DNA from: Gammaproteobacteria bacterium
Lineage (GTDB): Bacteria > Pseudomonadota > Gammaproteobacteria > SURF-13
DNA: 64,000 bases
Reading direction: 5' to 3'
Assembly (NCBI GenBank): GCA_003599485.1
Contig: QZKM01000019.1
Span: 9,806 to 73,805 of the forward strand
Of the stretch, positions 438-57,118 are shown one piece after another. Both the position numbers and the translations under genes were made by a program. Every line of letters begins with the position of its first letter. The first letter of the stretch is position 1. The notes beneath the pieces were generated by a model. That model ran no database searches. It saw nothing but the letters and a program-made list of their open reading frames with translations, and was not told where the DNA came from.

Positions 438-1436
438 CTAACTAAGCCCATTAGGGTGGTATAGGACGATGCGACTGCCGGTGTTTTCAAAATGAAATGG
501 CACGTGGACTAAATGGGTTAACTGACTTTTGACTTGCTGCTGGTTCTCCAGCGGAACATAAAGCAGTAGAAATCCACCGCCGCCTGCACCCAGTATTTTA
601 CCGCCCAAGGCGCCGCTCTTTAGTGCTTTCTCATAAATCTGATCAATGGTTAAGTTCGAAATCTTGTCGGAGAGGGATTTTTTATATCGCCAAGCCTCGT
701 CAAGAAGCCGTCCGAAATCATCCAGGCTATTCTCACCCCCATTGAGGATGGAGAGCGCCTCGCCAACCATTTCTTCCATGCGCCGCAATTCCGGCTCGCG
801 CTTTTTGAGATTTTCGATCTGAGTTTTGGCGACCTCGGAGGAAAAACGCGATATGCCGGTGAAGAACAGCATTAGGCTACCCTCCAGCATCTCCAGTTTG
901 GATTTCGGAAGAACCACCGGCACGACATCATAAGTGTTATCCCGTTTGAACTCGATACGATTGAATCCGCCGTGTGCCACGGATATCTGATCCTGCGATC
1001 CTACATTTTCTTTCAACACATCCTGCTCGATGTGGATGGCGTTATTAGCAAGCTCCTCCTTCGAGATATACCGGCCATTCAGAGCCATAATGGCGTTGAT
1101 GAGACCCACCGTAAACGATGAGCTGGAGCCCAGACCAGAGCGCGCCGGTAGGTCGCCATCGTGATGGATTTCGAGCCCCCTGTTGCACTTGAGCCATTCG
1201 AGCACTGCCTTGGCGGCGGGATGTTCGATCTGGGATATTTCCAGTGCATTCTCAATCTTGGAATAAACCACCCGGTATTTATGCTCGAAAAAAGGTGGCA
1301 GATACCGGCAACTGATATAGCAGTATTTATCGATGGTGGTAGCCAGCACCACGCCGCCGTTCTCACGGAACCATGCCGGATAATCCGTCCCGCCCCCGAA
1401 GAACGAAATACGAAATGGCGTCCTGCTGATGATCAT
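438..1436 (-). CDS. hddA: GHMP-family sugar kinase, HddA-like (D-glycero-alpha-D-manno-heptose-7-phosphate kinase family)
   Basis: PFRISFFGGGTD N-terminal motif, PARSGLGSSS ATP-binding motif, GGKILGAGGGG motif. Confidence 0.85.
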   Translation of the reverse strand: MIISRTPFRISFFGGGTDYPAWFRENGGVVLATTIDKYCYISCRYLPPFFEHKYRVVYSKIENALEISQIEHPAAKAVLEWLKCNRGLEIHHDGDLPARSGLGSSSSFTVGLINAIMALNGRYISKEELANNAIHIEQDVLKENVGSQDQISVAHGGFNRIEFKRDNTYDVVPVVLPKSKLEMLEGSLMLFFTGISRFSSEVAKTQIENLKKREPELRRMEEMVGEALSILNGGENSLDDFGRLLDEAWRYKKSLSDKISNLTIDQIYEKALKSGALGGKILGAGGGGFLLLYVPLENQQQVKSQLTHLVHVPFHFENTGSRIVLYHPNGLS

Positions 1437-1458
1437 GACATGCCGGCCTCCTGCTTCG

Positions 1459-2952
1459 TCATGAGTAGAGTTTTCGCTTTAGCTTGATGCGGGTCATTTC
1501 CTGTATATGCCTGACGACATCCTCTCCGAACTTCAGTCTGACCATATCAAGATAGCGGGGGTTGTTGAAGTATTTCATAAACGCCTCGTCCCGGAACTTC
1601 AACACCTCCGCCGGCCTCAGGACTTCCGTCGGCAGCGGCGTGGTTTCATAACTGTGCTGCGAGTAGCCTATCCATGAATCAGGCAGTTCCCAGCCTTTTT
1701 CCACCGCCATGCGGTAGAGCGGGGAGCCGGGATAGGCCATGGTGGAGTAAAAATTGGCAAACTCGCAGTTAGCCTCTATGGCCAGGTCCAGCGTCTCCTG
1801 CATGGACTCGTACGTATCGTCCGGCAAACCGAAAATATAGTTCCCGATTACGTAAATTCCCGCACTCTGAATTTTTCTCACGACTTCGAGAATCTGCGGC
1901 GTACCGAAGCGCCCCTTCTCTACTCCATCGCGCACGTGCTTACTGCCCGATTCGATGCCCAGCGCCAGCCAACGGAACCCGGCGCGCCGCAGCTTGTCCA
2001 GAAACTCGTCCTTGACCGTATCCACGCGCGCATACGCCCAGATATTCAGGTCATAGCCCCGTTCGATGATCCGGTCACAGATACCGAGGACATGGTTCCG
2101 GTTCAGCACAAACATCTCGTCCACAAACTTGATATTGCGCACGCCATACTTGTTTACCAGCACATCAATCTCCCTGATGACCGTGTCGGGCGACCACATA
2201 CGGTACGAGGGCTTCCCGAAGGGAGCATTGATGCAGCAAAACGAGCACTTATACGGGCAACCAAGGCTCGTATGCAGGGAGACATAAGGCGAACGCTCGT
2301 GGATGCGCTCGAAGCAATGCCAGTTGTGCGCCCGGTATTTATCCATCGGCAGCAGGTCCCAGGCCACCCCCGGCATTTCATTATCCAGGTCATCCATCAA
2401 CTCGCCCGGAGGATTGGCAACGATTCGCTCACCATCGCGATACCAGAGGCTCGGTATACCGCTGAATCTCGGTCTCGATGATTTCAGCGCGAGCGTGGCT
2501 TGCAGAATGGTCTGCGGTCCTTCCCGGTCGCACACATAGTCAATGTTTTCCTCGCGCATGGTTCTCTCTGGTAGAGCTGCGGGATGGGTACCGGTCATCA
2601 TGATCTTGTAGTTTCTATCCAATTCCTTGAGCGCGGCACAGGTTTCACCTGCGGCCGGCATGTTTTGCGTGGAAGCGGACGGCTGAAACCCATAGACCAC
2701 CATCACAATAAGCACGGGGTTGTAATTCTCCGCGACAAGCCGGGCAACACCCTGCGGACCCAGGTTGTGCGCCGGAGCGTCAATAATGGCGACAGACAGC
2801 CCCTTATTCCTTGTATAACCCGCAAACAGGCCGGCTAATGAAGGGGGCTCGATAGCCGAAAAGCTGTCGCCCAGTTCTTGATAAACGGCCGACCGGCTCC
2901 CGGGATTGATGAATAACACATCAACATCTTTTTTCACTACCATAGATTCCAC
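1459..2952 (-). CDS. Cobalamin-binding radical SAM protein (class B methyltransferase-like)
   Basis: N-terminal B12-binding-type region (PPSLAGL...GTHPAALP), CPYKCSFC cluster motif, FVDEMF, GIESGS, NYIFGLP. Confidence 0.9.
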   Translation of the reverse strand: MESMVVKKDVDVLFINPGSRSAVYQELGDSFSAIEPPSLAGLFAGYTRNKGLSVAIIDAPAHNLGPQGVARLVAENYNPVLIVMVVYGFQPSASTQNMPAAGETCAALKELDRNYKIMMTGTHPAALPERTMREENIDYVCDREGPQTILQATLALKSSRPRFSGIPSLWYRDGERIVANPPGELMDDLDNEMPGVAWDLLPMDKYRAHNWHCFERIHERSPYVSLHTSLGCPYKCSFCCINAPFGKPSYRMWSPDTVIREIDVLVNKYGVRNIKFVDEMFVLNRNHVLGICDRIIERGYDLNIWAYARVDTVKDEFLDKLRRAGFRWLALGIESGSKHVRDGVEKGRFGTPQILEVVRKIQSAGIYVIGNYIFGLPDDTYESMQETLDLAIEANCEFANFYSTMAYPGSPLYRMAVEKGWELPDSWIGYSQHSYETTPLPTEVLRPAEVLKFRDEAFMKYFNNPRYLDMVRLKFGEDVVRHIQEMTRIKLKRKLYS

Positions 2953-3008
2953 CCGATCCTCCCTCCCTTTGTCCTGATCCTCGCGTACTCGCTATTCTAA
3001 AGACATGG

Positions 3009-3713
3009 CTAGCGCCAACAGAACACTTCCCTTAAAAACTGGAAATAATACGCCGCGCCCCATTTTAGTACTTTCAGTTTTCTCTCTCCACCGATCCGTG
3101 GCGGCTCGTCACCGGGTATTTCGGTGATTTTGAGCTTTCGTTTTGCGGCACGCACGGACAGGAGCGGCTCCCAACTGATCCGGGTGCGGAATAACCTCTC
3201 TGCGGCCGCATAACCTTCGTCCTTCTCCAGCTCGAGGTCATAAACGACTTGCTTCTTGTACGCGCGGAAGATCACCATCGCATCAGTGTAATAACCGCCG
3301 TGCAACAGATTCACGGTGCGCGTAAAAAGCCAGTTCCCGAAGCCGGTAACAATGTCATCATCCTCGCTTTTCGCATCACCCAGATATCTGGAGGCAATCA
3401 CCATGTCATACCCTTCCCGCATCTTGTCAATTAGGGGAGGAATCAGTTCCGGAATGGAGTTACCGTCGGGACTGAAGGTGATGATAACGTCGCCTTCCAC
3501 ATAAGGAAGCACCTCGTTATAGGCATGCCGGAAGCCGGGGCGTTTCTGCACATATACCTCGTATCCCTGTTCCCTCGCCCATTCGATGGTGCCGTCGGTG
3601 GAACCGCCGTCGAGGACGATGATCTGGTCGCACCAGTCGCGCCTGACCCGTGGCATAATTGCCTGCATGCCGCGCAATTCATTTAGAGTTAGAACCAGTA
3701 GTGTTGTTTTCAT
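3009..3713 (-). CDS. GT2 glycosyltransferase, short DPM1/polyprenyl-phosphate glycosyltransferase-like
   Basis: TLNE, VLDGGSTDGT, FSPDGNS, MVIASRY, EPPRIGGERKL motifs; 234 aa. Confidence 0.85.
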   Translation of the reverse strand: MKTTLLVLTLNELRGMQAIMPRVRRDWCDQIIVLDGGSTDGTIEWAREQGYEVYVQKRPGFRHAYNEVLPYVEGDVIITFSPDGNSIPELIPPLIDKMREGYDMVIASRYLGDAKSEDDDIVTGFGNWLFTRTVNLLHGGYYTDAMVIFRAYKKQVVYDLELEKDEGYAAAERLFRTRISWEPLLSVRAAKRKLKITEIPGDEPPRIGGERKLKVLKWGAAYYFQFLREVFCWR

Positions 3714-3751
3714 TGGTTGATTGACTCAATGCAGGGTAGACGTCATCCCGT

Positions 3752-4546
3752 CTATTTTGAGAGCCTCCTGATCACCATCTTCAGCGCCACGAGCAGAACC
3801 ACAGCCAGCGATATGGCCAGCATGTTCTTTACCAGTGGGTAGGCGTTTCCGTCGAGAGCGATCCCTCTGAGGGAGGAACCTATGGCTGCGAACAATATGC
3901 TTAGCGGCAAAATGGAGAGCATGGTAGTGACGATATAACGGCTGAACCTGATCCTCGTCAACCCAAAGAAATAGCTGGAAGGCCCGAACGGGAAAATCGG
4001 GTTGAGACGGGCAAACGCCACCGCTTTCCACTCTTTGCGCTGTATCTCTTCCTTGAGCCAGGTCCAGGCGGAATGGCTGAACTTCCTGTTGAGGTAATCC
4101 GAGCCCAGATGCCGTGCGGCCAGAAAAGCGCATGCCGAACCCGCGCCGGCGCCGATTACCGTCAGAGCACCGCCCCAATAAGCGCCCCATATCAGCCCGG
4201 CGCCCAAATTCAACGGCAAGGTCGGAACCAGGCACACCACCATAATGGCATAAACGACGATAAAACCGGCAGGGGCGATAACAGGATGGGATTTAAGGAA
4301 GAAAACAATACTATCTGGCGCAAAATAGCCCTGCTGCCGCAGGATAAACAGCAGGATCGCCAGCCCGAAGAGAGCAGCCGCCAGCATAAAGCGCTTGCGC
4401 CGGATAACCTTCCGGACAACGTCCAGAAACGAGAAGATACCTCTTTTCCCGTTACGCTGTGATTCAAATACCGATGCGTCTTGCACATCTGCGGGATCAA
4501 ACAGGACGTCGCCGCTGTCTTTGTTTTCTTGGGGTTCGAGCTTCAT
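3752..4546 (-). CDS. DedA/TVP38/TMEM64 (VTT domain) membrane protein
   Basis: LPLNLGAGLIWGAYWGG, FLAARHLG, ARLNPIFPF, YFFGLTRIRF motifs. Start placed at 4546, where ATGA overlaps the NUDIX stop. Confidence 0.85.
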   Translation of the reverse strand: MKLEPQENKDSGDVLFDPADVQDASVFESQRNGKRGIFSFLDVVRKVIRRKRFMLAAALFGLAILLFILRQQGYFAPDSIVFFLKSHPVIAPAGFIVVYAIMVVCLVPTLPLNLGAGLIWGAYWGGALTVIGAGAGSACAFLAARHLGSDYLNRKFSHSAWTWLKEEIQRKEWKAVAFARLNPIFPFGPSSYFFGLTRIRFSRYIVTTMLSILPLSILFAAIGSSLRGIALDGNAYPLVKNMLAISLAVVLLVALKMVIRRLSK

Positions 4547-5121
4547 CTCAGCATGTTTTGATATTGAAAATACGCAATGAGCGTGCATGGGTCCTGGATT
4601 TCACCAGTATCATGCAGGGCAGCGACTTGCGCCGGTTCAAACCAACGGAATTCCTTGTGGCCGAATTCATCGCCGCTGAAGGGCCTGATTGCCTGGCAGC
4701 GCCGCGCTGCAAACAGATGCACGCGCGCCGCGAGAATTCCTGGTTCCGGTGCAATGACCCCCAGTGACTCGATGTCGGCATCCGTACACGACAAGCCGGT
4801 TTCCTCCTCCAGTTCACGGATCGCGGAACTACGATCCGGCTCACCGGGATCAACAAAACCTCTTGGAACTTCCCACAGATGGCGCTGAATGGCGTGCCGG
4901 TAGATGTGCAGCAGCCCTAATTTTCCATCAACGATGGGCAGCACGGCTATCCCGGTGATGAGATCGCCTATTTTGATCTTCGGTGCAACGACCAGATAGT
5001 CATGGATGCTTTCACCGTTCGCGCCCTCCACGTCATCCAGAAATACCTCGAAGCGGCTGTTTTCACAGGCCAGTCTCCGTTGGCGCAGTGCGTGAAAATC
5101 TTTTTCGTTGCCATGAGCCAT
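4543..5121 (-). CDS. NUDIX hydrolase (NDP-sugar/ADP-ribose pyrophosphatase-like)
   Basis: Nudix box GFVDPGEPDRSSAIRELEEETG. Start placed at ATG 5121 (MAHGNEK), just after the upstream stop at 5129. Confidence 0.88.
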   Translation of the reverse strand: MAHGNEKDFHALRQRRLACENSRFEVFLDDVEGANGESIHDYLVVAPKIKIGDLITGIAVLPIVDGKLGLLHIYRHAIQRHLWEVPRGFVDPGEPDRSSAIRELEEETGLSCTDADIESLGVIAPEPGILAARVHLFAARRCQAIRPFSGDEFGHKEFRWFEPAQVAALHDTGEIQDPCTLIAYFQYQNMLR

Positions 5122-5128
5122 ATGTACT

Positions 5129-6337
5129 CTAGTCGTGTGCTGTCCTATATCGTTCAACAAGCAATTCGGAGAAAGCAAAGGCGCTGGTAAACGCTGGAGA
5201 AATAGCGTTGAGCACATGCAGCGACGAAGGCGTGCTCTCAACGACAAAATCCATTTCGAGCTTTTGCGTGCGCAGATTGACCAACTGTGGCCGGATACCC
5301 ACCTTCCCGGAAGGGAGGAAATCATCCGCCATGATATCAGGAACAAGCCGGCGCGTGGCTTCAATGAAATGCGTTTTGCTGTATTTTCCGATTTCGCTGT
5401 GCACCATGCGCCGGAAACTCCTCTGATTGCGCAGATAAAGGCGGGCGAGATGCCAGCCGACCCTCATTCCCTCTCCAAGCCGGATGCCTTGGAGCACGCC
5501 GTAATTTTCCCGCCCGAAGGCCGGTATGGCCGTGGGTCCGGCATAGACATCACCGTTGATGACGCGCGTCAGATGCACACCCAGAAAAGGCAGCGATATA
5601 TCCGGCACCGGATAGATATTGCTTCGGACAAGATTCACTCTTTCCTTGCGTAACTTGTAATAAAGGCCCTTGAACGGCAGCAACGTATAATCGCGGCATA
5701 ATCCGAATTTCCTCGCGATCAGATCCGCGCTGGCCCCGGCGCAATTGAACACATATCCATAGGAATACTTGCCGGAGGAGGTAAAAAGGCATTTGTCTTT
5801 TTCAGCGACATCCGTCACTGTCCGGTTCAGGGCGAAGTGAACACCGGATTGCGTCAGGAGTTCGCGCAGCTTTTCAAGAACCGACCAGCTGTCGATAACC
5901 GCAGTATCCGGGCTGTATATGCCAACACGGTAAGGATTGGCATAAGGCTCGATCTCCTTGACCCCCTTTTCGTCCAGTTTTTCGGCGCGAATGCCGCTGT
6001 CCCGCGCATTCTGAAGCAGGCGTTCGACGGTGGGAATATCCTGCTCGCGCGTGGCGATAATTACTTTGCCGGAACGCCGGTACGGAATGCCGTGCTCATC
6101 AGCGAACTCCATCATCCGGAAAGCGCCTTTGGAACAGACTTTGGCCTTGAGCGTGTCCGCACCATAGTATATGCCGGAATGGAGCACGCCACTGTTGCGT
6201 CCGCTCGCGTGCCTGCCGAGCGCCGGCTCCTTTTCCAGCACTGCAACGCTGGCTTTCGGAAAGTGTTTCTTCAGTTCAAAAGCAGTGGTCAGACCGATAA
6301 TGCCCGCACCAATGATGACAAAATCAGAAGAGGACAC
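5129..6337 (-). CDS. lhgO: FAD-dependent oxidoreductase, L-2-hydroxyglutarate oxidase (LhgO) family
   Basis: IIGAGIIG, ASGRNSGVLHSGIYY, IYPVPD..PFLGVH, GIRPQ, LNAISPAFTS. Confidence 0.8.
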   Translation of the reverse strand: MSSSDFVIIGAGIIGLTTAFELKKHFPKASVAVLEKEPALGRHASGRNSGVLHSGIYYGADTLKAKVCSKGAFRMMEFADEHGIPYRRSGKVIIATREQDIPTVERLLQNARDSGIRAEKLDEKGVKEIEPYANPYRVGIYSPDTAVIDSWSVLEKLRELLTQSGVHFALNRTVTDVAEKDKCLFTSSGKYSYGYVFNCAGASADLIARKFGLCRDYTLLPFKGLYYKLRKERVNLVRSNIYPVPDISLPFLGVHLTRVINGDVYAGPTAIPAFGRENYGVLQGIRLGEGMRVGWHLARLYLRNQRSFRRMVHSEIGKYSKTHFIEATRRLVPDIMADDFLPSGKVGIRPQLVNLRTQKLEMDFVVESTPSSLHVLNAISPAFTSAFAFSELLVERYRTAHD

Positions 6338-6361
6338 AGGACAGATGCATCGTGGAGCGCG

Positions 6362-7315
6362 TTAAATGTTGCCGTATCTGGTGTTGCAGATCATGGTATA
6401 ACCCTTGATCAGCTCCTGAATGCCGAAATCGAGCGAGCACACCGGCTTGAACCCTGTGCCCTCGATCTTGGCGTTGGAGACAATGTAGTTGCGTTGATCC
6501 GGGTCCTTGCCAACGGGTGCATCGAGAAAAACAAATTCCGGCAGATGCTTTTGGATCGCCTGGCACAGTTCTTTTTTGGATACGTTGGCATCCGAGAGTC
6601 CGACATTGTAAATCTGGCCTTTCATCCTGCCGTAATTATTGATGGCGTGCAGAAACACGCGCGCCACGTCCCGAACGTGGATATAGTTGCGCTTGAACTG
6701 GCTCTCAAACAGCACCACGAAGCGGTCGTAGACCGCGCGATAAGTGAAATCATTAACCAGCAGGTCAATGCGCATGCGCGGCGACATCCCGAACACCGTC
6801 GCCAGCCGGAAACTGATGGCGTTCGGGTGCTGCATGAGCGCCTTTTCGATTTCAACCTTTTCTATCGCATACTGGGAAATGGGCCGCAGCGGGGATTCCT
6901 CAGTGCAGAAATTGTTCTTATCGCCCGTTCCATACGCGCTGTTTGTCGTGGGCATGAGCACAATCTGATCCTTGCTCAGCAACTTCAACATCATCGTGAT
7001 GGCGTCATGATTGGTCGTGGTAGCGCCGACGGGGTCCTTGCTGCACAGCGGCGCGCCCACGAGTGCCGCAAGCGGAATAATAATATCGGCGTTTTTTATC
7101 AGCGGCCGCATGGTGCTCTCCACGCGGATGTCTCCGCAGACCACACTGAAATTGGGATGGTGGCAGACATGTGCCAGACTGTTCTGGCCAAACATAAAGT
7201 TGTCCAGTACAGTGACTTTGTGTCCCGCGTCCAGCAGTTCCGGAACCATGGTCGAACCCAGATAGCCCGCCCCGCCTGTAACCAGAATATTGTGCCTCAT
7301 ATCTTTTCCTTTCAA
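6362..7315 (-). CDS. NAD-dependent epimerase/dehydratase (extended SDR)
   Basis: TGGAGYLG, YAIEK (YxxxK), RLATVFGMSPRMRIDLLVNDF. Confidence 0.9.
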   Translation of the reverse strand: MKGKDMRHNILVTGGAGYLGSTMVPELLDAGHKVTVLDNFMFGQNSLAHVCHHPNFSVVCGDIRVESTMRPLIKNADIIIPLAALVGAPLCSKDPVGATTTNHDAITMMLKLLSKDQIVLMPTTNSAYGTGDKNNFCTEESPLRPISQYAIEKVEIEKALMQHPNAISFRLATVFGMSPRMRIDLLVNDFTYRAVYDRFVVLFESQFKRNYIHVRDVARVFLHAINNYGRMKGQIYNVGLSDANVSKKELCQAIQKHLPEFVFLDAPVGKDPDQRNYIVSNAKIEGTGFKPVCSLDFGIQELIKGYTMICNTRYGNI

Positions 7316-7345
7316 GTTCTAAGCTGTGATGACTGCATGAAATCC

Positions 7346-8053
7346 CTACGCGCGCGGCAATAGAGCGGCGGCGCGCCGGTAATCCTCCGGTATACCGATA
7401 TCAATGAACCGGCCAAAAGACGGGAAACCATACATACGTTTGCCAGCCACCAGCATGCGCGGATACAGTTGGTCCTCGATCGAAACCGGCTCATTAGATT
7501 CCGGAACCATGCCGGCAAAGGCGTACCTCTCCGCCAGGTAGACCCCCCCGTTGATCAACGCCCGGCCTGAAGTTCGCGCGCGATTATCAAAAGCCGTTAT
7601 CTTTCCATCCTTATCAATCTCTACGCTGGCATAACGGCTGTTGGCCTCCACTTCGCGCAAGGCGATGGTCACCTCTGCGCGCCTGTCCTGGTGATAACGG
7701 CGCATCAGCGCCAGATCAACTTCAAAAAAGGTATCGCCGTTCATAACTAAAAACGAATCTGACCCACGCAAGCCCTCCAGTGCCAGCAGCAATCCGCCAC
7801 CTGTCCCGCGCGGCTGCTCTTCCACGGCATACACCACTTCGGCCTCCTTGTGCCGCGCGCTAAAATATTCCTCGATGATTTGGCACTTGTAACCGACCGA
7901 CAGTACAAAACGGCTGACACCCTGGCCGGCCCAGTAGTTGAGCAGATATTCCAAGAAAGGACGGCCGTTGATGGGCGCCATCGGTTTGGGCACATCCGGC
8001 ACTACCGCCTTGAGTCGGCTGCCCACCCCACCGGCGAGAATAATGGCCTCCAT
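7346..8053 (-). CDS. hddC: Sugar-1-phosphate nucleotidyltransferase, HddC-like guanylyltransferase
   Basis: ILAGGVGSRL, PKPMAPINGRPFL, GTGG, VMNGDT, INGGVY, FIDIGIPEDY. Confidence 0.8.
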   Translation of the reverse strand: MEAIILAGGVGSRLKAVVPDVPKPMAPINGRPFLEYLLNYWAGQGVSRFVLSVGYKCQIIEEYFSARHKEAEVVYAVEEQPRGTGGGLLLALEGLRGSDSFLVMNGDTFFEVDLALMRRYHQDRRAEVTIALREVEANSRYASVEIDKDGKITAFDNRARTSGRALINGGVYLAERYAFAGMVPESNEPVSIEDQLYPRMLVAGKRMYGFPSFGRFIDIGIPEDYRRAAALLPRA

Positions 8054-8064
8054 CGGGAGTGGAT

Positions 8065-9234
8065 TTAATCCACCGCTTTTGTCAGCACTTCATGAAAACG
8101 CATGATCTGCGGCGTGATATCGTGCGGATGGTTGCCGACAAAAAATCCGCGGTCATGGGCGGTATTGGCGTTCGTGATATGCCCCACGCATTCATAGTCA
8201 AAATATTTGATAACGTCATGGCGCAGGAAATTCCCACCCGTGATGATGCGATAACCGATATCCGCCTGTTTCATGGCATTCATGACCTTCTTACGGTCAA
8301 TGTTAAATTCGGGGTTGAGAACCACCGTAAAGGCGAACCAGGAGCTCTTGCCGTTCTCGCGCTGAATGATAAAGCGCTCGTCGCTCTTGAACAAATCTAC
8401 AAATACACTGGCATTGCGCCGCCGCGTCTCCACCATCACATCCAGTTTCTTCAACTGCTCCACGCCGATCGCGCCACTCAGCTCAAGTGGTCTGGCATTG
8501 TAGCCCGGCAGAATGAAGCGGTATGCCTCGAAAAAATCGTCGTCACGCTTCTCGTAAATCGGGCTGTCCGCCGGGACATCGCGCGTCCAGCCGTGCGCGC
8601 GGATAGATCGCGCAAGGTGATACAGCCCCGTATCGTTCGTCACTAGCACACCTCCTTCCATGGTCGAGATGTGATGGGAGAAAAACGTGCTGAAAGTACC
8701 GATGTCGCCGAACGTTCCACATGGTTTTCCACCGAGCTCCGCGCCCATAGACTCGCAGTTGTCCTCGAACAGATAAAGGCCGTGCTTGTCGCAAAACTTG
8801 CGCAGGACATCGAGCGCACAGGGATTGCCCAGAATGCTGACCGCGACAACCATTCGTGTACTGGATGTCAGCGCCTTTTCAAGCTGCGATACGTCCATGT
8901 TCAGCGTATCAAGCTCCACATCCAGGAACTTGAGCTTCAGACCATACTGCTGAAGCGGATAATAGGTCGTGGCCCAAGAGATCGAAGGGACAATCACCTC
9001 GTCGCCCCGTTTAAGCGGGCGCTCCTTCTTGTAAAAGAGCGCAGCGATGCCGACCAGATTCGCGGTGGAACCGGAGCTGACCATGAGCGCATGCTTTACG
9101 CCGAATTTCTGGGCAAAGGCCTCTTCGAAACGCTGAACGTTCTCCCCCATGGTGAAGCGGCCGCCAGCGATGACGCGCTGGATGGCCTGAATTTCCTCAT
9201 TGCCCCAGGAACTGCTGGCTAGTTCGTAGTACAT
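8065..9234 (-). CDS. colD: PLP-dependent GDP-4-keto-6-deoxy-D-mannose 3-dehydratase (ColD type)
   Basis: DegT-family fold with His at the usual Schiff-base Lys position (TFFSHHISTMEGG). ColD-like N-terminus (YELASSSWG), EDNCESMGA, RAHGWTR, PGYNARPLE. Lacks the Cys-rich Fe-S motif of DdhC/E1. Start placed at 9234. Confidence 0.85.
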   Translation of the reverse strand: MYYELASSSWGNEEIQAIQRVIAGGRFTMGENVQRFEEAFAQKFGVKHALMVSSGSTANLVGIAALFYKKERPLKRGDEVIVPSISWATTYYPLQQYGLKLKFLDVELDTLNMDVSQLEKALTSSTRMVVAVSILGNPCALDVLRKFCDKHGLYLFEDNCESMGAELGGKPCGTFGDIGTFSTFFSHHISTMEGGVLVTNDTGLYHLARSIRAHGWTRDVPADSPIYEKRDDDFFEAYRFILPGYNARPLELSGAIGVEQLKKLDVMVETRRRNASVFVDLFKSDERFIIQRENGKSSWFAFTVVLNPEFNIDRKKVMNAMKQADIGYRIITGGNFLRHDVIKYFDYECVGHITNANTAHDRGFFVGNHPHDITPQIMRFHEVLTKAVD

Positions 9235-9253
9235 GCTTCCCCTTTGCAAAAAA

Positions 9254-10291
9254 TTATTTTTTAACCATCTCCCTGATGACGCCAGCGACCTTCTCTGCAT
9301 CAGGATAGTAAAATTGCTCCAGCGTATAGCCTGCCGGCGTTGGAATGTCTGGAAGACCTACGCGGCGCACCGGCGATTTAAGGTAATCGAACCACTTTTC
9401 CGCGGCGAGACATCCGATCTCGGCACACACGCCTCCCATTGCCCAGCCGGTGTCCACCACCAATATCTTTCCGGTTTTCTTCAGGGATTCAGCGATGATC
9501 TGCTCGTCAAGCGGCTTGAGCGTCCGCAGATCAATGATCTCGCTCTCAATGCCATCGGCGGCGAGTTTGTTGGCCGCCTGCAAGGCGACTTCCAGCGCAT
9601 GCGAAGCGCCGACGATTGTGATATCGCTGCCGCGGCGGCGATAAATTCCTTTTCCCAGCGGCACGGTATAAAAACCTTCGGGTACCGTCCCGTCTTTTTT
9701 CATCAGCCAGCGATGCTCGAAGATCAGCACCGGGTTGTTGTCGGCGATCGCTGCCAGCATAAGTCCTTTGGCGTCGTATGGCGTGCTCGGCATCACGATT
9801 TTCAGGCCCGGCACCCCGAGCAGAAGTCCCTGAATGGACTGGGAATGCTGCGCGCCGGAACCCCATCCACGACCGATAGCAGCCCACACCACCATCGGCA
9901 CCGTGGTCTGGCCGTTGTCCATATAGTGGTACTTGGACGCGTGCGTCACCAGCTGATTGAAGGCGAGCAGAATGAAGTCAGGGCGGTTATGCATATACAC
10001 CGGCCGCATGCCGTTCATGGCCGCGCCAGTACAGACGCCCATCATTCCTTCTTCGGAGAGGGGGGTGTCGAACACGCGTGCGGCGCCGTATTTTTCCTGC
10101 AACCCCCTGGTGGTTCCAAACATGGCGCCGGGGTCATCCACGCCCTGCCCCAGAACGAACACGCCGGGGTCATGTGCCAGCGCGATGTCGAGCGCCTCAT
10201 TGATTGCTTTGGCGTAACCGAGAGATCTACCCGTGCCCGGGTCGGGCGCCTCATACACGAGCGAATTGACTAGACCTTCATCCCACGGCAT
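9254..10291 (-). CDS. ThDP-dependent 2-oxoacid dehydrogenase E1 beta subunit-like / transketolase C-terminal protein
   Basis: VFDTPLSEEG, GSGAQHSQ, PSTPYDAKGL, IFEHRWL, IDLRTLKPLD. Confidence 0.9.
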   Translation of the reverse strand: MPWDEGLVNSLVYEAPDPGTGRSLGYAKAINEALDIALAHDPGVFVLGQGVDDPGAMFGTTRGLQEKYGAARVFDTPLSEEGMMGVCTGAAMNGMRPVYMHNRPDFILLAFNQLVTHASKYHYMDNGQTTVPMVVWAAIGRGWGSGAQHSQSIQGLLLGVPGLKIVMPSTPYDAKGLMLAAIADNNPVLIFEHRWLMKKDGTVPEGFYTVPLGKGIYRRRGSDITIVGASHALEVALQAANKLAADGIESEIIDLRTLKPLDEQIIAESLKKTGKILVVDTGWAMGGVCAEIGCLAAEKWFDYLKSPVRRVGLPDIPTPAGYTLEQFYYPDAEKVAGVIREMVKK

Positions 10292-10312
10292 GACGTTTGT
10301 TCTCAGGGGTTA

Positions 10313-11338
10313 TCAATCGCTGTAAATATGGGCATACAAATCCTTTTCTTCCGGATTCGGGCTCGCCAGGGCGTAATCAAACGCCTCAATCACTTCCAGC
10401 ATGATTTCCGCATGCATGTGTTCGCGCTGTGCGATTGTGATTAAACCCGCATCCGCCAGAAACCGGAAATAGGTCTCGATGGGGCACACTTCCTCCCAAG
10501 CCTTCAATTCCGCAGTATCTCGATAGCCCGTGTGGCTGTCATCGCCCGCGCCACCGTGCGCCCTGAAACGGTACACTGGGGCCTCGATAAACGTAGCCCC
10601 ACCGCCTTCACGTGCGCGTTTGACTGCTTCACGAACGGCTTCATAGACAGCTAGTACGTTGGCGCCATCCACCCGCACACTGGCTATCCCATAACCCGCG
10701 GCCCATTTATATATCTCACGCGGTGGCTGCCGGGTTGCCAACGGCGACTGAACCGAATAGAAATTGTTCTCACAGAAGAAAATCACTGGAAGCTTTTTAA
10801 GAGCCGCGAAATTGAGGCTTTCGGAAGTAACACCCTCTTCCGTCCCCGCATCGCCGAAAAACACGACCGATACCCGGTCAAGCCCCTGGAGCTGCGCGGT
10901 AAGCGCGGAACCGGCAGCGATCGGAATGGCGCCGGCGACGATAGCGGAGGTTCCCGCCATGCCGACGCTCTTATCAATCAGATGCATGGAACCGCCGCGC
11001 GAGCCAACGCAACCGTTGATGCGGCAGTGCATCTCGCACAGCATCGCCTTGAGATCACCGCTCTTGGCGAGATAATTGCCGTGCGTGCGGTGGCTGCTGT
11101 ACAGCAGGTCAGTCTTGCGCAACGCCGCGCAACAGCCCACCGAGGTCGCCTCCTGCCCGATAACCAGATGGATCGGTGTTTTCATCTGGTCTTGGTGGTA
11201 GCGCCGCTCGATCTCCTCTTCGATCAAGCGTATGCGCAACATATCTCGAAACAGGCGTACCAGAAATTCATCCTGGAACCGGCCCCGGGCAGCACCCCAT
11301 CCCTGATAACCGTTCTCGGAATATTCGTACCTGATCAT
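10313..11338 (-). CDS. ThDP-dependent E1 alpha subunit-like protein
   Basis: HLVIGQEA, HRTHG, RGGSMH, ThDP-binding GDAGTEEG...ENNFYSV. Confidence 0.9.
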   Translation of the reverse strand: MIRYEYSENGYQGWGAARGRFQDEFLVRLFRDMLRIRLIEEEIERRYHQDQMKTPIHLVIGQEATSVGCCAALRKTDLLYSSHRTHGNYLAKSGDLKAMLCEMHCRINGCVGSRGGSMHLIDKSVGMAGTSAIVAGAIPIAAGSALTAQLQGLDRVSVVFFGDAGTEEGVTSESLNFAALKKLPVIFFCENNFYSVQSPLATRQPPREIYKWAAGYGIASVRVDGANVLAVYEAVREAVKRAREGGGATFIEAPVYRFRAHGGAGDDSHTGYRDTAELKAWEEVCPIETYFRFLADAGLITIAQREHMHAEIMLEVIEAFDYALASPNPEEKDLYAHIYSD

Positions 11339-11447
11339 GCTGTTACAACCGGAAAAAAGCCATTACTCTAACTGGAGAATGCTTTAAAAACGGAAATATC
11401 ACACGATCGGGATACTGGCCGCGGACCGCTCCGGCCGCCAAGCCGGG

Positions 11448-12473
11448 TTAGTACTTGTACTCAATCCCCACCCGGTTGCAGCCCGAGCAGATAGGTATGG
11501 TCTTTCTTCCATGTTCTCTATGAGTCTTCCTCATCCCCACCACCTCAGGCCCATTCCATACCTTTAATATGTCGGTTTCCGCCGGCTTGAACGTCCCATA
11601 GCCCTTGACGTTGCTCCATGTCACGTAATCACAGCAGGGCAACATGTCGCCGTTCCAGTTGACGGTGAGCACCTTCCACAACCAGTCGCAAGGTATGTGC
11701 GCCGCAGAGCGGACAACAGGCTGAATGTCCTCTTTGTCTTCCATGCCGCGGGGGTTGCCAGGACGGATAGTGAACAGAAACCCGTGTTGACGGGCAAAAT
11801 CCCTGAACTGCTCAATCTCATGGGTATTGTGTTTGTAGCGGATGTAATCAATCAGCACGATCATCCGGGCCTTTCTCTCTTTGATCCTCCGGGCCAACAT
11901 GCTCAGATTGCTCTTGATTACCTCCACATTGCCGAGACGATGTTGCACTTGGTGGACCTCGTTTGTAAAACCGGAGACGTGCACCTTGATCTGGTCAAGA
12001 TCGTTACTCAATATTTTCTCTATATTGGCCTCGTTCAACAAAATACCATTCGATGAAAGAATCGTCGCGACGTTACATTCCTTGGCAACTCTCAGAACAT
12101 CGTCCAAGTACTGATAAATAAATGGCTCGCCGTTTACATAAGGTACGGCCATCAGCAGTGTGTCCTTGGTCTGCCGGATAATATTCTCGTATATCGGAAG
12201 TTTCATGACTCCTTTTGGAATGAAACCGTCCGATTTACCGGGATTCAGATCATAGATCTTCCCGTTCTTGTCGCGGCAGAAAACGCAGCTTTCATTGCAG
12301 TTATTGGACAGCTCAAAGTTGATGAGAAACGGCGTCCGCCCGGATCGGTTGAGCTTGAGCCAGTAGGCCACGTAGCAATAAGCGGTATTGGCGATCTTGC
12401 GCAGAGACAGCTTTCCCTTGCGCAATAGCAGAAAAATTAAACTGATTTTCAGGAAAGAGTATTTTGTTAGCAT
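11448..12473 (-). CDS. Radical SAM protein with C-terminal twitch/SPASM domain
   Basis: CNESCVFC motif, NGEPF; C-terminal CDWLW...GDMLPCCD...CSGC. Confidence 0.88.
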   Translation of the reverse strand: MLTKYSFLKISLIFLLLRKGKLSLRKIANTAYCYVAYWLKLNRSGRTPFLINFELSNNCNESCVFCRDKNGKIYDLNPGKSDGFIPKGVMKLPIYENIIRQTKDTLLMAVPYVNGEPFIYQYLDDVLRVAKECNVATILSSNGILLNEANIEKILSNDLDQIKVHVSGFTNEVHQVQHRLGNVEVIKSNLSMLARRIKERKARMIVLIDYIRYKHNTHEIEQFRDFARQHGFLFTIRPGNPRGMEDKEDIQPVVRSAAHIPCDWLWKVLTVNWNGDMLPCCDYVTWSNVKGYGTFKPAETDILKVWNGPEVVGMRKTHREHGRKTIPICSGCNRVGIEYKY

Positions 12474-12494
12474 GCGGCACCCCTGTTCATTTCG

Positions 12495-13424
12495 TCAATC
12501 AAACCCTATTTTCCGGTCGATAATGTAGCTGGGGCGTCCCTTAACCTGTTCGTAAATCCTCCCCAAGTATACACCAAGGATCCCGATGGTAAACAAGATC
12601 ACTCCGCTCAGAAACAGGATGGTCGCCATAATGGCCGTCCAACCCGGCAGATTGATTCCCATAAGCTTGGTCAGGATAACATAGGCAAGCGCCAGGAATG
12701 AAATGAGCGCGACAACCAATCCAAGTATGAGTGCGAAATAAAGCGGCGCGGCGGAGAACGAAGTAATGCCGCGATTGAATTCCTTATAGGGGTTAGTGCT
12801 CTTGAATAATCCAAACTTGGATTCACCAGCCGCCCTCGCATCACGTTCATAATGCACCATGGCCTGCCTGAAGCCGATCCATCTGGACAAACCCCGCAGA
12901 TAAGGGTCGTGTTCATTCAGCTTCAGTATTTCCGTTACAGCCCTTCTCGACAAGAGTTTGAAGTCCCCGGCGTTTTCGTAGAAATCAATGTCCGAAAAGG
13001 CATTGATCATTTTATACGCAAGCATGGTCAGCCACATTTTCATCAAGCTTTCCCCATACCGCTTGGTGCGGACGGTATGAACAACCTCCACACCCTCATG
13101 CCATTTCCGCACCAGATCAGGGATCAGTTCGGGCGGATCCTGCAGGTCGGCGTCCATATACACAACGGCGTCCCCTCTTGCCTCAGCCAACCCGGCAATC
13201 ACACAGGGTGTTACTCCGAAACGGCGTGACATGCTGATGATTTTAATGTTGTTGTTCGCCGCGCGCAGCGACTGCAATATCTCCAATGATCCGTCCGTTG
13301 AGGCATCATTCACAAATATGAGTTCGTGCTCGCCAAGGTCCTCTAGAACAGCCGAGGCGCGACGGACGAGTTCGGGAATGACCTTTTCCTCATTTCTGAA
13401 GGAAAATACGACGGAGATAAGCAT
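12495..13424 (-). CDS. GT2 undecaprenyl-phosphate glycosyltransferase, GtrB/ArnC-like
   Basis: FRNEE, VNDASTDGS, MDADLQDPPE, GDFKLLSR, two C-terminal TM helices, YLGRIYEQVKGRPSYII. Confidence 0.9.
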   Translation of the reverse strand: MLISVVFSFRNEEKVIPELVRRASAVLEDLGEHELIFVNDASTDGSLEILQSLRAANNNIKIISMSRRFGVTPCVIAGLAEARGDAVVYMDADLQDPPELIPDLVRKWHEGVEVVHTVRTKRYGESLMKMWLTMLAYKMINAFSDIDFYENAGDFKLLSRRAVTEILKLNEHDPYLRGLSRWIGFRQAMVHYERDARAAGESKFGLFKSTNPYKEFNRGITSFSAAPLYFALILGLVVALISFLALAYVILTKLMGINLPGWTAIMATILFLSGVILFTIGILGVYLGRIYEQVKGRPSYIIDRKIGFD

Positions 13425-13627
13425 GTTCCTTGCTCCTCAGATCGGAAGTAGCGGGTTGATCGCCCGACTCCCGGTCACAAATCCAGGATAGGCACTGATT
13501 TTCGAAGCTGTCAAGGTAACACCGGTTTCAATGAGCAAACCCGGCGCACGGCGTACCGGGCGTTCTGGCAGTATGAAAAATCGGACCAAAGTTAACCGGT
13601 CAACAGGACTTCTGAGTGAATAAAAAC

Positions 13628-15424
13628 TCATCCCGTAGCCCTCCCGGGCCCGCCGTGCAAAGGACCTCCCGTATGGCTCACGGTGTCCTCGGCCGGGGGA
13701 ACATACACGGCAAACTCACCGTTGCTCCACACCCGCCGGTACGCATTCGAGGCAAGAAATTCCTCCAAAATATCATCATAACCAGTATTGCCATATTTTA
13801 CGGTTACTGGAAGTGGACGCCTGTCACCCCTCTCCAAGAGCATCCTTTCTATTTCATCGCGCGTATAGATCTCCGACCATGGGTGTGGGAAATACGGCTT
13901 GGTTTCAGTCAGGTAATTAAGCAGCGGCGCGGTCCACGCAACAAACAGCGTATCACCCTTGCGCACATATTTGCCCAGTTCTGCAATCACCGCGTTGAGC
14001 GACTCGGCTTTTTCATGGGTGGTATACACATGATTCAGGTACTGGTTATCAACAGCATAACGGAGCCCCGGGCGATTGTATGAGTCAGAGTACGAAAAAC
14101 AGAATCCGTTCACCGCTGAAAATAACAACAGCAGCGCCAGGGCGCGCTTCCGGTAAGCATGAAGCGTCTCTGAACCGGCCACGACTGACCCGCCCGCATC
14201 CTGTCCGCCAGCCAGGGCGAACCGCGTCTCACCCATGATACCCTTGACGTTACGCATGAACTCAACTACCAGCGGGAGAGCAGCCGGGAGCAGGTAGAGT
14301 TGATTGACGAAACCGGCCCCTGATCCCAGCGGCCAGATGACTAACTGAATCAACAGCAACAGGCCAATTACGCCCAGCGGTCCCGACCGCCACCGCGCCA
14401 TGAACGCATACAGCGCCGAAACCACCATGCACAACGCCACTAGCATCGACCCTAACCGCCCGGACAGGGGAATGCCGATCACGTCGTAAAAGTACCAGAA
14501 GAACAGAAGCGCCCCCGCGGCCGGCAGCAACCATACACGGGGGCGATATTTGTCCATCCTCAGGGTCCAGTGCACGGCCAGGAGCAACAGGGCCAGCATC
14601 ACCAGACCATCGAATAACAGATGGTAATAGCCATTGAGGACGGGCTTGATTAGATTGCCATAGGGACCATGATCGGCGTTGCCGGTGGAGGCGAACAGAT
14701 ATTCGAGCGAACGCAGATAATAGTAATCATGGCCCAGAGCCCGCATCATGACCAGTGACATGGCCACGGCCACAACCACACCGATGGTGAAAATCATCAA
14801 CTGCTTCCACTGGATGCGGGCCGGCGTTCCCTGCATCCAGCCGTGCCAAGCAATGGCCAGTGCCATAAACAGGCCCAGCAGATTAGGCAGCCTGACGAAG
14901 ATGTTGAAACCAATCAGTGCGGCAGCGGCGAAGATAAACCCCTGGCGATTCGCATTGAGACCGCGCACCAGCAGCAATATGGATGCAAGATGGAAAAACA
15001 GGGAGAGATTATTGTAGCCAAGCAGGGTTGTCGTCATAAAATGGTGGTAATACATCACGCCCACCAGCACGCCCAGCCCGATTGTCATCCTGTCCAGATG
15101 AGGTCGGCACAAAAGATAAACCAGACCGAACGTGGCGATGCTGACAACAGCCCCGCCGACCCGGAAACCGGCCAGACCAAACTCACCGAACAACAGATTC
15201 CAGGCGCCACCGATAATGCTCGTCCCCCAAACCCCGTAAGTGTCGGCAATCGCAGCCGGATCGCTGAAGATTAGCTGATAAATGACCAGGGCATTGCCTT
15301 CGTCGCTGTAACTGATGCCCTGCCACAAATACAGAAACGGATAGATGATAATCAACAGCCACACTGTGCGGGTTACATCCCGCCACATCCCGATTGATCC
15401 GGTAGATTCCACGTGTCCATTCAT
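13628..15424 (-). CDS. Large polytopic membrane protein, probable GT-C (GtrC/PMT-like) glycosyltransferase
   Basis: N-terminal TM followed by YSDEG loop, many TM segments, soluble C-terminal domain; directly upstream of the GtrB-like gene. Confidence 0.6.
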   Translation of the reverse strand: MNGHVESTGSIGMWRDVTRTVWLLIIIYPFLYLWQGISYSDEGNALVIYQLIFSDPAAIADTYGVWGTSIIGGAWNLLFGEFGLAGFRVGGAVVSIATFGLVYLLCRPHLDRMTIGLGVLVGVMYYHHFMTTTLLGYNNLSLFFHLASILLLVRGLNANRQGFIFAAAALIGFNIFVRLPNLLGLFMALAIAWHGWMQGTPARIQWKQLMIFTIGVVVAVAMSLVMMRALGHDYYYLRSLEYLFASTGNADHGPYGNLIKPVLNGYYHLLFDGLVMLALLLLAVHWTLRMDKYRPRVWLLPAAGALLFFWYFYDVIGIPLSGRLGSMLVALCMVVSALYAFMARWRSGPLGVIGLLLLIQLVIWPLGSGAGFVNQLYLLPAALPLVVEFMRNVKGIMGETRFALAGGQDAGGSVVAGSETLHAYRKRALALLLLFSAVNGFCFSYSDSYNRPGLRYAVDNQYLNHVYTTHEKAESLNAVIAELGKYVRKGDTLFVAWTAPLLNYLTETKPYFPHPWSEIYTRDEIERMLLERGDRRPLPVTVKYGNTGYDDILEEFLASNAYRRVWSNGEFAVYVPPAEDTVSHTGGPLHGGPGRATG

Positions 15425-24260: not shown

Positions 24261-24989
24261 TTAATTCACCGACCGATGAACTTGGCGGAGTATCCGTCCG
24301 GTAGCCTCCACCATTTCCAGCGTCGTGATCGTGTAATAGGGTTCGTTTGTGCGGAACGCTACCAGTTGCCGCCGCGTGATCAAGCGGGGGAGAAACTCCT
24401 TTTCAAACGAGAAATTATGCGCGGGCATCCCTGGCACCATTCCCTTATCCAACAGGAAAAAACCAATATCCACACCCTGGTGTTCCGCGCCCGCCGGAAT
24501 GGCGCCGTAGGACAGCACGTATCCGTCTTTTGACATGTGGATATTGTTCCGAAAACCGTATTCTCCCCTGCCATCCCTATTGTTATACACGGTCACCATC
24601 ACTGGCGCGGCCATTTTTTCATAGGTGCACGTCATCTCATCCAGCGGAAGCGGCCAGTAATTATCACCGTACATTAGCAGGAATCTGTCGGCCAATAACG
24701 CCTTGGCGTTCCGCACACGGGTTCCGGTTTCGTCGTCCACCGTGCCGATGGAATACCGGATGCGCAGGCCGAATCGGCCTCCGTCGCCAAAGTATTCGGT
24801 AATTTTCTCGGGGAGATAGCCCAGCAGCATCACGATCTCGGTGATGCCGCTGACGCGCAACCGCTCAACCAGGTATTCCAGAAACGGGCGCTCATTCACA
24901 GGCACCATGGGTTTCGGAAGATTGTTGGTGAGCGGTCGCAGGCGCTCGCCCCTGCCGCCGGCCAGAATGACCGCCTGGTTGATTTGCAT
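24261..24989 (-). CDS. Second sugar-phosphate nucleotidyltransferase
   Basis: VILAGGRGERL, PKPMVPVNERPFL, ETGTR, LMYGDNY. Start placed at 24989 (TGATG overlap). Confidence 0.88.
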   Translation of the reverse strand: MQINQAVILAGGRGERLRPLTNNLPKPMVPVNERPFLEYLVERLRVSGITEIVMLLGYLPEKITEYFGDGGRFGLRIRYSIGTVDDETGTRVRNAKALLADRFLLMYGDNYWPLPLDEMTCTYEKMAAPVMVTVYNNRDGRGEYGFRNNIHMSKDGYVLSYGAIPAGAEHQGVDIGFFLLDKGMVPGMPAHNFSFEKEFLPRLITRRQLVAFRTNEPYYTITTLEMVEATGRILRQVHRSVN

Positions 24990-26616: not shown

Positions 26617-26622
26617 TGCCGT

Positions 26623-27648: not shown

Positions 27649-27663
27649 GAGTATTCCTTGGGG

Positions 27664-28131: not shown

Positions 28132-28135
28132 GGCA

Positions 28136-56960: not shown

Positions 56961-56967
56961 AATTTAG

Positions 56968-57118
56968 AGAGTCTCTGATTAAGTCAGAGGTTTCTGCGGT
57001 ACAGGGAGGTACCGCCATTTTACAATCACGCATGTGATTGTAAAATGAAGAAAAGCAAAAACCACGTTTTTGCTTTTCGTGCTCTGAGAAGTCCAGGATG
57101 GACTTATTCAGAGCTTCC
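56968..57118. mobile_element. 151-bp MITE-like element with IS5-like terminal inverted repeats and three perfect internal hairpins
   Basis: Left end AGAGTCTCTGATTAAGTC preceded by TTAG; right end reverse-complements to GGAAGCTCTGAATAAGTCC, flanked by TTAA. Internal stems are 7 bp (56996-57015), 14 bp (57016-57047) and 13 bp (57050-57078). Confidence 0.7.

Follow-up and report, generated by a model that had tools for sequence, protein, structure and literature searches.

We analyzed a 64-kb stretch of contig QZKM01000019.1 from a Gammaproteobacteria bacterium (lineage SURF-13), hereafter the window. It contains five consecutive minus-strand genes for the alpha and beta subunits of a thiamine diphosphate (ThDP)-dependent E1 enzyme, a ColD-type sugar dehydratase, a sugar-1-phosphate nucleotidyltransferase, and a short-chain dehydrogenase/reductase (SDR). 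On balance, we consider it probable that these five genes are the center of a conserved GDP-heptose-tailoring cassette of about ten genes, in which a 3-deoxy-4-keto-heptose would gain a two-carbon (C2) unit from pyruvate and then be acted on by a radical S-adenosylmethionine (SAM) enzyme, for use in a surface glycan. An earlier note on this DNA had recognized the five genes, along with manC, gmd, and fcl in the same locus, and both observations hold in Pfam and NCBIfam (the last three genes all score above their NCBIfam equivalog cut-offs). The module it described is real, but it is about twice the size stated, as it also takes in an HddA-like kinase, an HddC-like transferase, a B12-binding radical SAM enzyme, and a Nudix hydrolase. 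Likewise, its picture of a His-type ColD beside an E2-less ThDP E1 pair in a nucleotide-sugar pathway stood up, whereas entry through Gmd and a branch-reducing function for the SDR were not supported.

In the proposed pathway, the SDR, which resembles Cj1427 of Campylobacter jejuni, would oxidize C4 of GDP-heptose with 2-oxoglutarate as the oxidant, and the resulting L-2-hydroxyglutarate would be re-oxidized by a flavoenzyme of the LhgO type. The ColD-type dehydratase would strip the 3-hydroxyl to give GDP-D-glycero-3-deoxy-4-keto-heptose, using glutamate and freeing 2-oxoglutarate for the SDR. The E2-less E1 pair would decarboxylate pyruvate and pass the hydroxyethyl-ThDP carbanion to a sugar carbonyl, most likely at C4, leaving a 4-C-acetyl tertiary alcohol. 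The B12-type radical SAM enzyme may then rework this product by C-methylation or by C-C ring closure, and a small family 2 glycosyltransferase (GT2), a DedA protein, and a GT-C enzyme would route the sugar via a polyprenyl-phosphate carrier to the surface glycan. The steps up to GDP-3-deoxy-4-keto-heptose rest on homology to characterized enzymes, and we infer the later ones.

Conservation of the cassette

A scan of species-representative genomes yielded 80 loci, and the proteins of the window were mapped by tblastn. Co-occurrence was counted on the 53 loci of at least 15 kb, with a Cj1427-like SDR called at 50% identity or more. Such an SDR is present in 29 of them, and these carry orthologues of the kinase (28), the B12 radical SAM enzyme (25), and the His-type DegT-family dehydratase (28); among the 24 loci without the SDR, each of these three was found once. 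The neighborhood of colD and the E1 genes, whose conservation the earlier note had proposed to check, is kept in relatives.

The cassette reaches at least ten phyla. In a Sulfuricaulis metagenome-assembled genome (MAG), Burkholderiales MAGs, and JGI contigs, the gene order is B12 radical SAM, GHMP kinase, E1 alpha, E1 beta, 389-residue DegT, nucleotidyltransferase, (SIS), SDR, DAO, Nudix, (HAD), and in the relatives' cassettes a full GmhA/HddA/GmhB/HddC set is reached through the SIS and HAD genes. The dehydratase is of the His type even at about 30% identity to ColD, in Nitrospina, Myxococcota, Elusimicrobia, Omnitrophota, Chloroflexota, Firestonebacteria, Planctomycetota, and Solidesulfovibrio magneticus. 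Plasmid pDMC1 of S. magneticus RS-1 holds the whole set, including lhgO, SIS, VTT, GT2, and PMT-type GT-C genes. Because the adjacency of the central genes recurs in dozens of loci from many phyla, it is far from chance. At one betaproteobacterial locus (L035, a MAG), the radical SAM, kinase, E1 alpha, and E1 beta genes stand together, with no other cassette gene within the next 10 kb.

Within the window, the gaps among the five central genes measure 11–30 nt, which is consistent with an operon, and all sizeable genes at positions 438–15424 lie on the minus strand. The sequence of the locus was found solely in metagenomic DNA runs, which gave no transcript evidence. The literature searched held no description of the cassette, although one survey of ThDP branching enzymes fell outside our coverage and may list members. 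The cassette is apparently widespread and unstudied.

Predicted formation of a 3-deoxy-4-keto-heptose

We placed the start of the DegT-family protein at the ATG at position 9234, which has a AAAGGGGAAG ribosome-binding site ahead of it; the 5′ end of the open reading frame (ORF) is overlong, and the chosen start gives 389 residues, the length of all homologues. The protein matches the structures of Escherichia coli O55 ColD (PDB 2gms and 3gr9) with E = 2.3e-129 and 435 bits, over residues 24–406 against 5–389, and Pfam DegT with 262 bits. Its catalytic His is kept (FFSHHISTMEGG), with the SHH motif aligned to His188 of 2gms; the H188K and H188N mutant entries, 2r0t and 3b8x, show K and N at that column. 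By this similarity, it is a true His-type 3-dehydratase, as the earlier note had proposed. The ColD match and the retained His are what the locus shares with the colitose pathway (Gmd, ColD, ColC). Unlike in that pathway, the ColD-type gene here sits between the E1 beta and HddC-like genes, no ColC gene adjoins it, and a Cj1427-like partner takes the place of Gmd. The conserved neighbors of the gene are the Cj1427-like and HddC-like genes, and gmd and fcl lie about 29 kb away in the same locus.

The SDR matches Cj1427 (PDB 6vo6 and 6vo8) over its full length (residues 8–316, E = 1.7e-112, 379 bits). The next-best PDB match reaches 76 bits, leaving 6vo6 and 6vo8 as the only strong solved relatives. 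Judged by these alignments, the SDR is an orthologue of Cj1427, a GDP-heptose C4-dehydrogenase, and not a ketoreductase of known type, which speaks against the branch-reducing role first assigned to it. Cj1427 works by a ping-pong mechanism, in which 2-oxoglutarate re-oxidizes the tightly bound NADH and is turned into L-2-hydroxyglutarate; together with the ColD-like C3-dehydratase of serotype HS:5, it forms GDP-D-glycero-3-deoxy-4-keto-D-threo-heptose in vitro (PMC10680097).

The flavoenzyme adjoining the SDR scores 343.7 bits against the LhgO family (NCBIfam NF008726, cut-off 299), and its copy in the S. magneticus cassette is annotated lhgO. We predict that it recycles the L-2-hydroxyglutarate produced by the Cj1427-like SDR. 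An alternative in which it makes 2-oxoglutarate as a donor for the E1 enzyme was rejected because the flavoenzyme is directly accounted for by the chemistry of Cj1427 and the donors of alphaKADH2 enzymes seem to be limited to C2 units. Since ColD frees 2-oxoglutarate from glutamate, the SDR and the dehydratase would also be coupled through this cofactor. The genes at 5129–9234 of the window would together encode a loop in which the ColD-type enzyme turns glutamate into 2-oxoglutarate, the SDR turns 2-oxoglutarate into L-2-hydroxyglutarate, and the LhgO-like enzyme restores 2-oxoglutarate. The pairing of Cj1427-like and LhgO-like genes suggests that the cycle seen in vitro is physiological.

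The heptose assignment draws on the remaining genes. HddA is the best NCBIfam match of the kinase (138 bits, cut-off 600), whose homologues carry the JGI annotation heptose-7-phosphate kinase, and HddC is that of the nucleotidyltransferase (190.7 bits, cut-off 300). Relatives encode GmhA and GmhB within the cassette, and this genome encodes them outside it; a GmhA-like SIS gene lies at 26020–26616 of the window. In the cassettes of two loci (L005 and L009), a GmhA-like SIS protein, a GmhB-like HAD/PNK3P protein, the GHMP kinase, and the nucleotidyltransferase are all encoded inside. Many cassettes have no gmd nearby; those of L003, L005, and S. magneticus have heptose genes and no nearby gmd. 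Because of the HddC-like and HddA-like genes, the GmhA-like and GmhB-like genes of relatives, and the frequent absence of a nearby gmd, the substrate is likely a 3-deoxy-4-keto-heptose that retains its 6-hydroxyl, rather than a 3,6-dideoxyhexose. Together with the Cj1427-like SDR, these observations speak against the entry given in the earlier note, in which Gmd and ColD would supply GDP-4-keto-3,6-dideoxymannose.

The window also holds a second heptose-type module (24261–29386 and 32765–33733), comprising a nucleotidyltransferase, an SDR, the GmhA-like SIS protein, an HddA-like GHMP kinase, an RmlC-like cupin, and an NDP-sugar C-methyltransferase. From this gene content, the locus probably makes two different modified heptoses. 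A second Gmd-like gene is present as well (346 bits, gmd cut-off 415).

Proposed C2 transfer, later steps, and neighboring genes

Both E1 subunits score below the pyruvate dehydrogenase (PDH) equivalog cut-offs of NCBIfam: the alpha subunit has PDH E1 alpha as its best match (274 bits, cut-off 394), and the beta subunit reaches 294 bits (cut-off 321). The beta subunit matches E1 beta structures in the PDB at about E = 1e-66. Homologues of the alpha subunit form more than 120 clusters at 70–86% identity. By Pfam, the proteins are E1_dh and transketolase-type subunits, and the single-chain TPP_enzyme N/M/C architecture of YerE-type enzymes was not found in them. No E2 or E3 gene occurs in the 64-kb window, where the sizeable ORFs were checked for lipoyl, E2 catalytic, and E3 domains, or in the annotated cassettes of relatives; for the window, this confirms the absence noted earlier. 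In control E1 pairs on plasmids of S. meliloti and Aminobacter, E2 or E2-lpdA-lipA lies directly downstream. A tree of E1 beta places 42 of 43 cassette copies in one supported clade; the two E2-linked controls and a second glycan-associated group fall outside it.

Pairs of E1 alpha and beta subunits of the alphaKADH2 type are documented to transfer a C2 unit from pyruvate to the C3 or C4 ketone of nucleotide sugars, as KbDH does with ketones in vitro, and the known sugar-pathway members all act on ring ketones (PMC12247030). The earlier note's view of such pairs as a sugar-branching enzyme type is thereby upheld. In the Burkholderiales cassettes (L003, L005, and L009), no Fcl gene or other C4 reductase lies within 10 kb, and the 4-ketone therefore needs another consumer. 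We infer the C2 transfer from this gap in the pathway, from the alphaKADH2 precedent, from the formation of such a ketone by the cassette, and from the lack of E2.

Two other approaches to the E1 pair were set aside. Loss of the lipoyl-directed histidines was considered as a mark of independence from E2 and proved uninformative: beta-His128 is kept, and an invariant His lies in the YRFRAHGGAGDD loop, which is one residue longer than the canonical loop. An E1 pair on a Streptomyces albogriseolus plasmid was dropped as a stand-in for antibiotic-type alphaKADH2 enzymes, as its neighbors (a sigma factor, an ABC transporter, TrpA, and an acyl-CoA dehydrogenase) are not sugar genes.

The second glycan-associated group is a family of E2-less E1 pairs in its own right, represented by a pair on an Azospirillum oryzae plasmid (L095) and by a clade of 26 rows in the E1 beta tree (e.g. 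L043, L048, L053, L061, and L080). Its partners are two Lys-type DegT aminotransferases and SIS and HAD genes; the A. oryzae pair is also accompanied by an HldE-like PfkB kinase, a radical SAM gene, and a Nudix gene. This family resembles a parallel version of the cassette for ADP-heptose or an amino sugar.

The B12 radical SAM enzyme matches Pfam B12-binding (44.6 bits) and Radical_SAM (69 bits) and carries the motif CPYKCSFC (CxxxCxxC). Its best NCBIfam matches, HpnJ (166.7 bits, cut-off 577.6) and BchE (129 bits), fall far short of the respective cut-offs; both enzymes are implicated in the formation of five-membered carbocycles. The PDB matches are weak, with the diol dehydratase AprD4 as the best (NCBIfam 85 bits), accompanied by TsrM and TokK. 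We rejected solved structures as a guide to the reaction, since these matches are too weak to separate methylase, cyclase, and dehydratase; methylation, ring closure, and dehydration are all possible on the sequence.

A more specific proposal, which we regard as tentative and less likely than not, is that the cassette is a route to a carbocyclic nonose of the caryose type, with caryose or a stereoisomer as the product. In this mapping, C1–C7 would come from GDP-heptose, with the 3-deoxy position due to the ColD-type enzyme, and C8–C9 would come from pyruvate through addition by the E1 pair to the C4 ketone, a step that would leave a tertiary alcohol at C4. A hydrogen would then be taken from C7 by the HpnJ/BchE-like radical SAM enzyme, and the C7–C8 bond would close on the acetyl carbonyl to form a cyclopentane, so that C8 would become a second tertiary alcohol and C9 a methyl group. 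As proposed, the mapping covers every oxygen and deoxy position, and the core enzymes would suffice. The ido prefix in the name of caryose implies that C5 is inverted relative to D-manno and that an epimerase outside the core would be needed, perhaps an Fcl-like enzyme. The genome of Trinickia caryophylli comprises two chromosomes and no plasmid (PMC11895463).

The small GT2 matches AglJ in NCBIfam and resembles dolichyl-phosphate hexose transferases. Its orthologues (50–80% identity) occur in cassettes of Nitrospinota, Bdellovibrionota, Omnitrophota, Elusimicrobia, and S. magneticus, and by family it likely loads the product onto a lipid carrier. GT2, VTT, and GT-C genes recur with the cassette, and a VTT gene also adjoins it in L001 and on S. 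magneticus pDMC1. The Nudix gene recurs in cassettes too, and its product matches ADP-ribose and ADP-sugar pyrophosphatases in the PDB. We placed its start at the in-frame ATG at position 5121, 7 nt past the stop codon of the flavoenzyme gene, and the start of the DedA/VTT gene overlaps its stop codon (ATGA).

Coordinates of the cassette and related genes are given in Table 1. Directly upstream of E1 alpha (11448–15424) lie the SPASM gene, a PgfS/ArnC-like polyprenyl-phosphate GT2, and a 598-residue PMT_2-like membrane protein; of the relatives, only the two closest (L015 and L091) share the SPASM–GT2 pair, beside their E1 genes. In Burkholderiales and Hydrogenophilales MAGs (L003, L005, and L009), on Azospirillum lipoferum plasmid p6 (L089), and in L081, which are unrelated genomes, genes for MtnP and an MtnA-like isomerase flank the cassette, and the MAGs also carry a 657-residue class II aldolase–SDR fusion there. 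This flank may serve the salvage of 5′-deoxyadenosine from radical SAM chemistry or be a source of acetaldehyde. In the window, mtnP-def lies at 56412–57859, 45 kb from the cassette, and neither MtnA nor the aldolase fusion is encoded there.

Table 1. Genes of the putative cassette and related genes in the window (functions assigned by similarity).
Feature	Position	Strand	Evidence or remark
GHMP kinase, HddA-like (predicted D-glycero-D-manno-heptose 7-phosphate 1-kinase)	438..1436	-	Pfam GHMP N and C domains
Class B (B12-binding domain) radical SAM enzyme	1459..2952	-	Pfam B12-binding and Radical_SAM
Small GT2, polyprenyl-phosphate sugar synthase-like	3009..3713	-	Pfam GT2
DedA/VTT membrane protein	3752..4546	-	Pfam VTT_dom; start 4546 (ATGA overlap) or 4588
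Nudix hydrolase, NDP-sugar/ADP-ribose pyrophosphatase type	4543..5121	-	Pfam NUDIX
FAD oxidoreductase scoring as LhgO	5129..6337	-	NCBIfam NF008726
SDR, Cj1427-like	6362..7315	-	PDB 6vo6/6vo8
Sugar-1-phosphate nucleotidyltransferase, HddC-like (predicted heptose-1-phosphate guanylyltransferase)	7346..8053	-	NCBIfam HddC
ColD-type pyridoxamine phosphate (PMP)-dependent GDP-4-keto-sugar 3-dehydratase (His for Lys)	8065..9234 (ORF to 9300)	-	ColD structures
ThDP enzyme E1 beta subunit (alphaKADH2 type)	9254..10291	-	Pfam Transket_pyr and Transketolase_C
ThDP enzyme E1 alpha subunit (alphaKADH2 type)	10313..11338	-	Pfam E1_dh
Radical SAM/SPASM protein, accessory, cassette membership uncertain	11448..12473	-	Pfam Radical_SAM and SPASM
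fcl	38184-39128		NCBIfam equivalog cut-off passed
gmd	39132-40271		NCBIfam equivalog cut-off passed
manC	40268-41671		NCBIfam equivalog cut-off passed

Alternative readings and known systems

Several observations weigh against the heptose-branching pathway. The HddA and HddC scores are below their equivalog cut-offs, and the second kinase of the window scores the same as the first. The ColD-type protein resembles the ColD of the GDP-6-deoxymannose type, with gmd in the locus, and a hexose substrate is possible in this genome. Both catalytic histidines of dehydrogenase-type E1 enzymes are kept in the cassette pair, so that its sequence is compatible with an oxidative role. On plasmid p6 of A. 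lipoferum 4B, the radical SAM–kinase–Nudix block lies 21 kb from the E1–ColD block. Lastly, a gene for an Fcl-family epimerase/reductase occurs in many cassettes, often right after E1 beta. This enzyme may reduce C4, in which case the E1 pair would have to work at another position; it may also epimerize C5 or reduce the branch.

This last observation leads to a model in which, once the 3-hydroxyl is gone, an Fcl- or ColC-like enzyme reduces C4, the radical SAM enzyme dehydrates the C6–C7 glycol to a new carbonyl, and the E1 pair extends or branches the side chain at that carbonyl, giving a linear or C6-branched nonose. The preference of ThDP enzymes for aldehydes over ketones fits such a model, as does the rank of AprD4 as first among the solved structures that the radical SAM enzyme matches. 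That match is weak, however, and is the best partly because HpnJ and BchE have no solved structures; moreover, no Fcl gene lies within 10 kb in the Burkholderiales cassettes, and the known alphaKADH2 precedents are confined to ring ketones (PMC12247030). We regard the model as unlikely. A GDP-linked, yersiniose-like 3,6-dideoxyhexose, as in the earlier note, would instead arise if Gmd and ColD made GDP-4-keto-3,6-dideoxymannose, the E1 pair added a C2 unit at C4, and the SDR reduced the acetyl group. The presence of manC, gmd, and fcl in the locus and the match of the dehydratase to the E. coli GDP-4-keto-6-deoxymannose 3-dehydratase (E = 2e-129) would agree with this route, which we nevertheless find distinctly improbable given the Cj1427 orthology of the SDR, the adjoining LhgO-type enzyme, the HddA-like kinase and HddC-like transferase, and the cassettes (L003, L005, and S. 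magneticus) that have heptose genes and no nearby gmd.

The earlier note had also offered chain extension as an alternative, with the E1 pair building a longer ketose phosphate that would be isomerized, phosphorylated, and activated with GDP, as in the lincosamide octose route. In lincomycin biosynthesis, the GmhA/HddA/GmhB/HddC logic accepts an octose, and in most loci of the cassette the kinase gene and E1 alpha are immediate neighbors. A pyruvate-derived unit would, however, give a 1-deoxyketose, which a GmhA-type isomerase could not convert, and a heptose-like substrate is what the match to Cj1427 over the full length of the SDR indicates. The occurrence of E1 pairs alongside HldE-type ADP-heptose genes, too, suggests action on nucleotide-heptoses. 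We judge this alternative less likely than the heptose-branching pathway, with a low probability overall. There is very little to recommend, finally, the view that the pair is an ordinary oxidative decarboxylase for acetyl-CoA supply or acetoin degradation, with E2 and E3 encoded elsewhere, and a passenger in the locus. The retained histidines and the PDH E1 subunits as best family matches would suit it, but both scores are below the PDH equivalog cut-offs, the pair is co-inherited with the cassette in at least ten phyla with no E2 nearby, and its clade is separate from the two E2-linked pairs.

The heptose-branching pathway can also be set beside systems that have been characterized. With the GDP-heptose pathways of C. 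jejuni, it shares the nucleotide-heptose entry (GmhA/HddA/GmhB/HddC), a Cj1427 orthologue, and a ColD-type C3-dehydratase. Those pathways end with epimerases and C4-reductases and have no ThDP or radical SAM step, and the natural place of their 3-dehydratase is after a 4,6-dehydratase, whereas the native partner in the cassette is the Cj1427-like C4-dehydrogenase. The cassette also encodes a putative recycling enzyme of the LhgO type, which is not described for C. jejuni.

By domains and context, the E1 pair can be likened to the actinomycete alphaKADH2 enzymes of aldgamycin, avilamycin (AviB1/B2), paulomycin, and kibdelomycin (KbDH), which are also split, E2-less E1 pairs in NDP-keto-sugar pathways; the expected reaction is the same addition of a pyruvate C2 unit to a ring ketone to give a tertiary alcohol (PMC12247030). 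Their substrates are deoxyhexoses or pentoses linked to dTDP or UDP, in the secondary metabolism of Gram-positive bacteria, whereas the cassette would be based on GDP-heptose and lies in surface-glycan loci, mostly of Gram-negative bacteria and candidate phyla, with a B12 radical SAM gene in 25 of the 29 loci. In yersiniose, erwiniose, and caryophyllose biosynthesis, a 3-deoxy-4-keto nucleotide sugar likewise takes up the acyl carbanion of a 2-oxo acid at C4, in the context of lipopolysaccharide (PMC9306805). The enzyme in those systems, YerE, is a single chain of the decarboxylase/acetolactate-synthase superfamily that acts on CDP-hexoses after 3-deoxygenation by E1/E3 (DdhC/D), in contrast to the E1_dh/transketolase-type heteromer, the putative GDP-linked heptose, and the ColD-type dehydratase of the cassette.

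ThDP-dependent C-branching of envelope sugars is known only for YerE-type enzymes on CDP-hexoses, and E1-type branching only from actinomycete antibiotics. If our reading is correct, an E1-type ligase, a ColD-type dehydratase, and a B12 radical SAM enzyme would act together on a GDP-heptose scaffold in the surface-glycan loci of many mostly uncultured phyla. The Cj1427-like/LhgO pair would lend genomic support to a 2-oxoglutarate/L-2-hydroxyglutarate cycle in vivo. Two carriers of the cassette, S. magneticus RS-1 (pDMC1) and A. lipoferum 4B (p6), are cultivable. The pathway would predict a class of nine-carbon sugars that previously had no assigned genes and would offer a testable route to caryose-like carbocyclic sugars.

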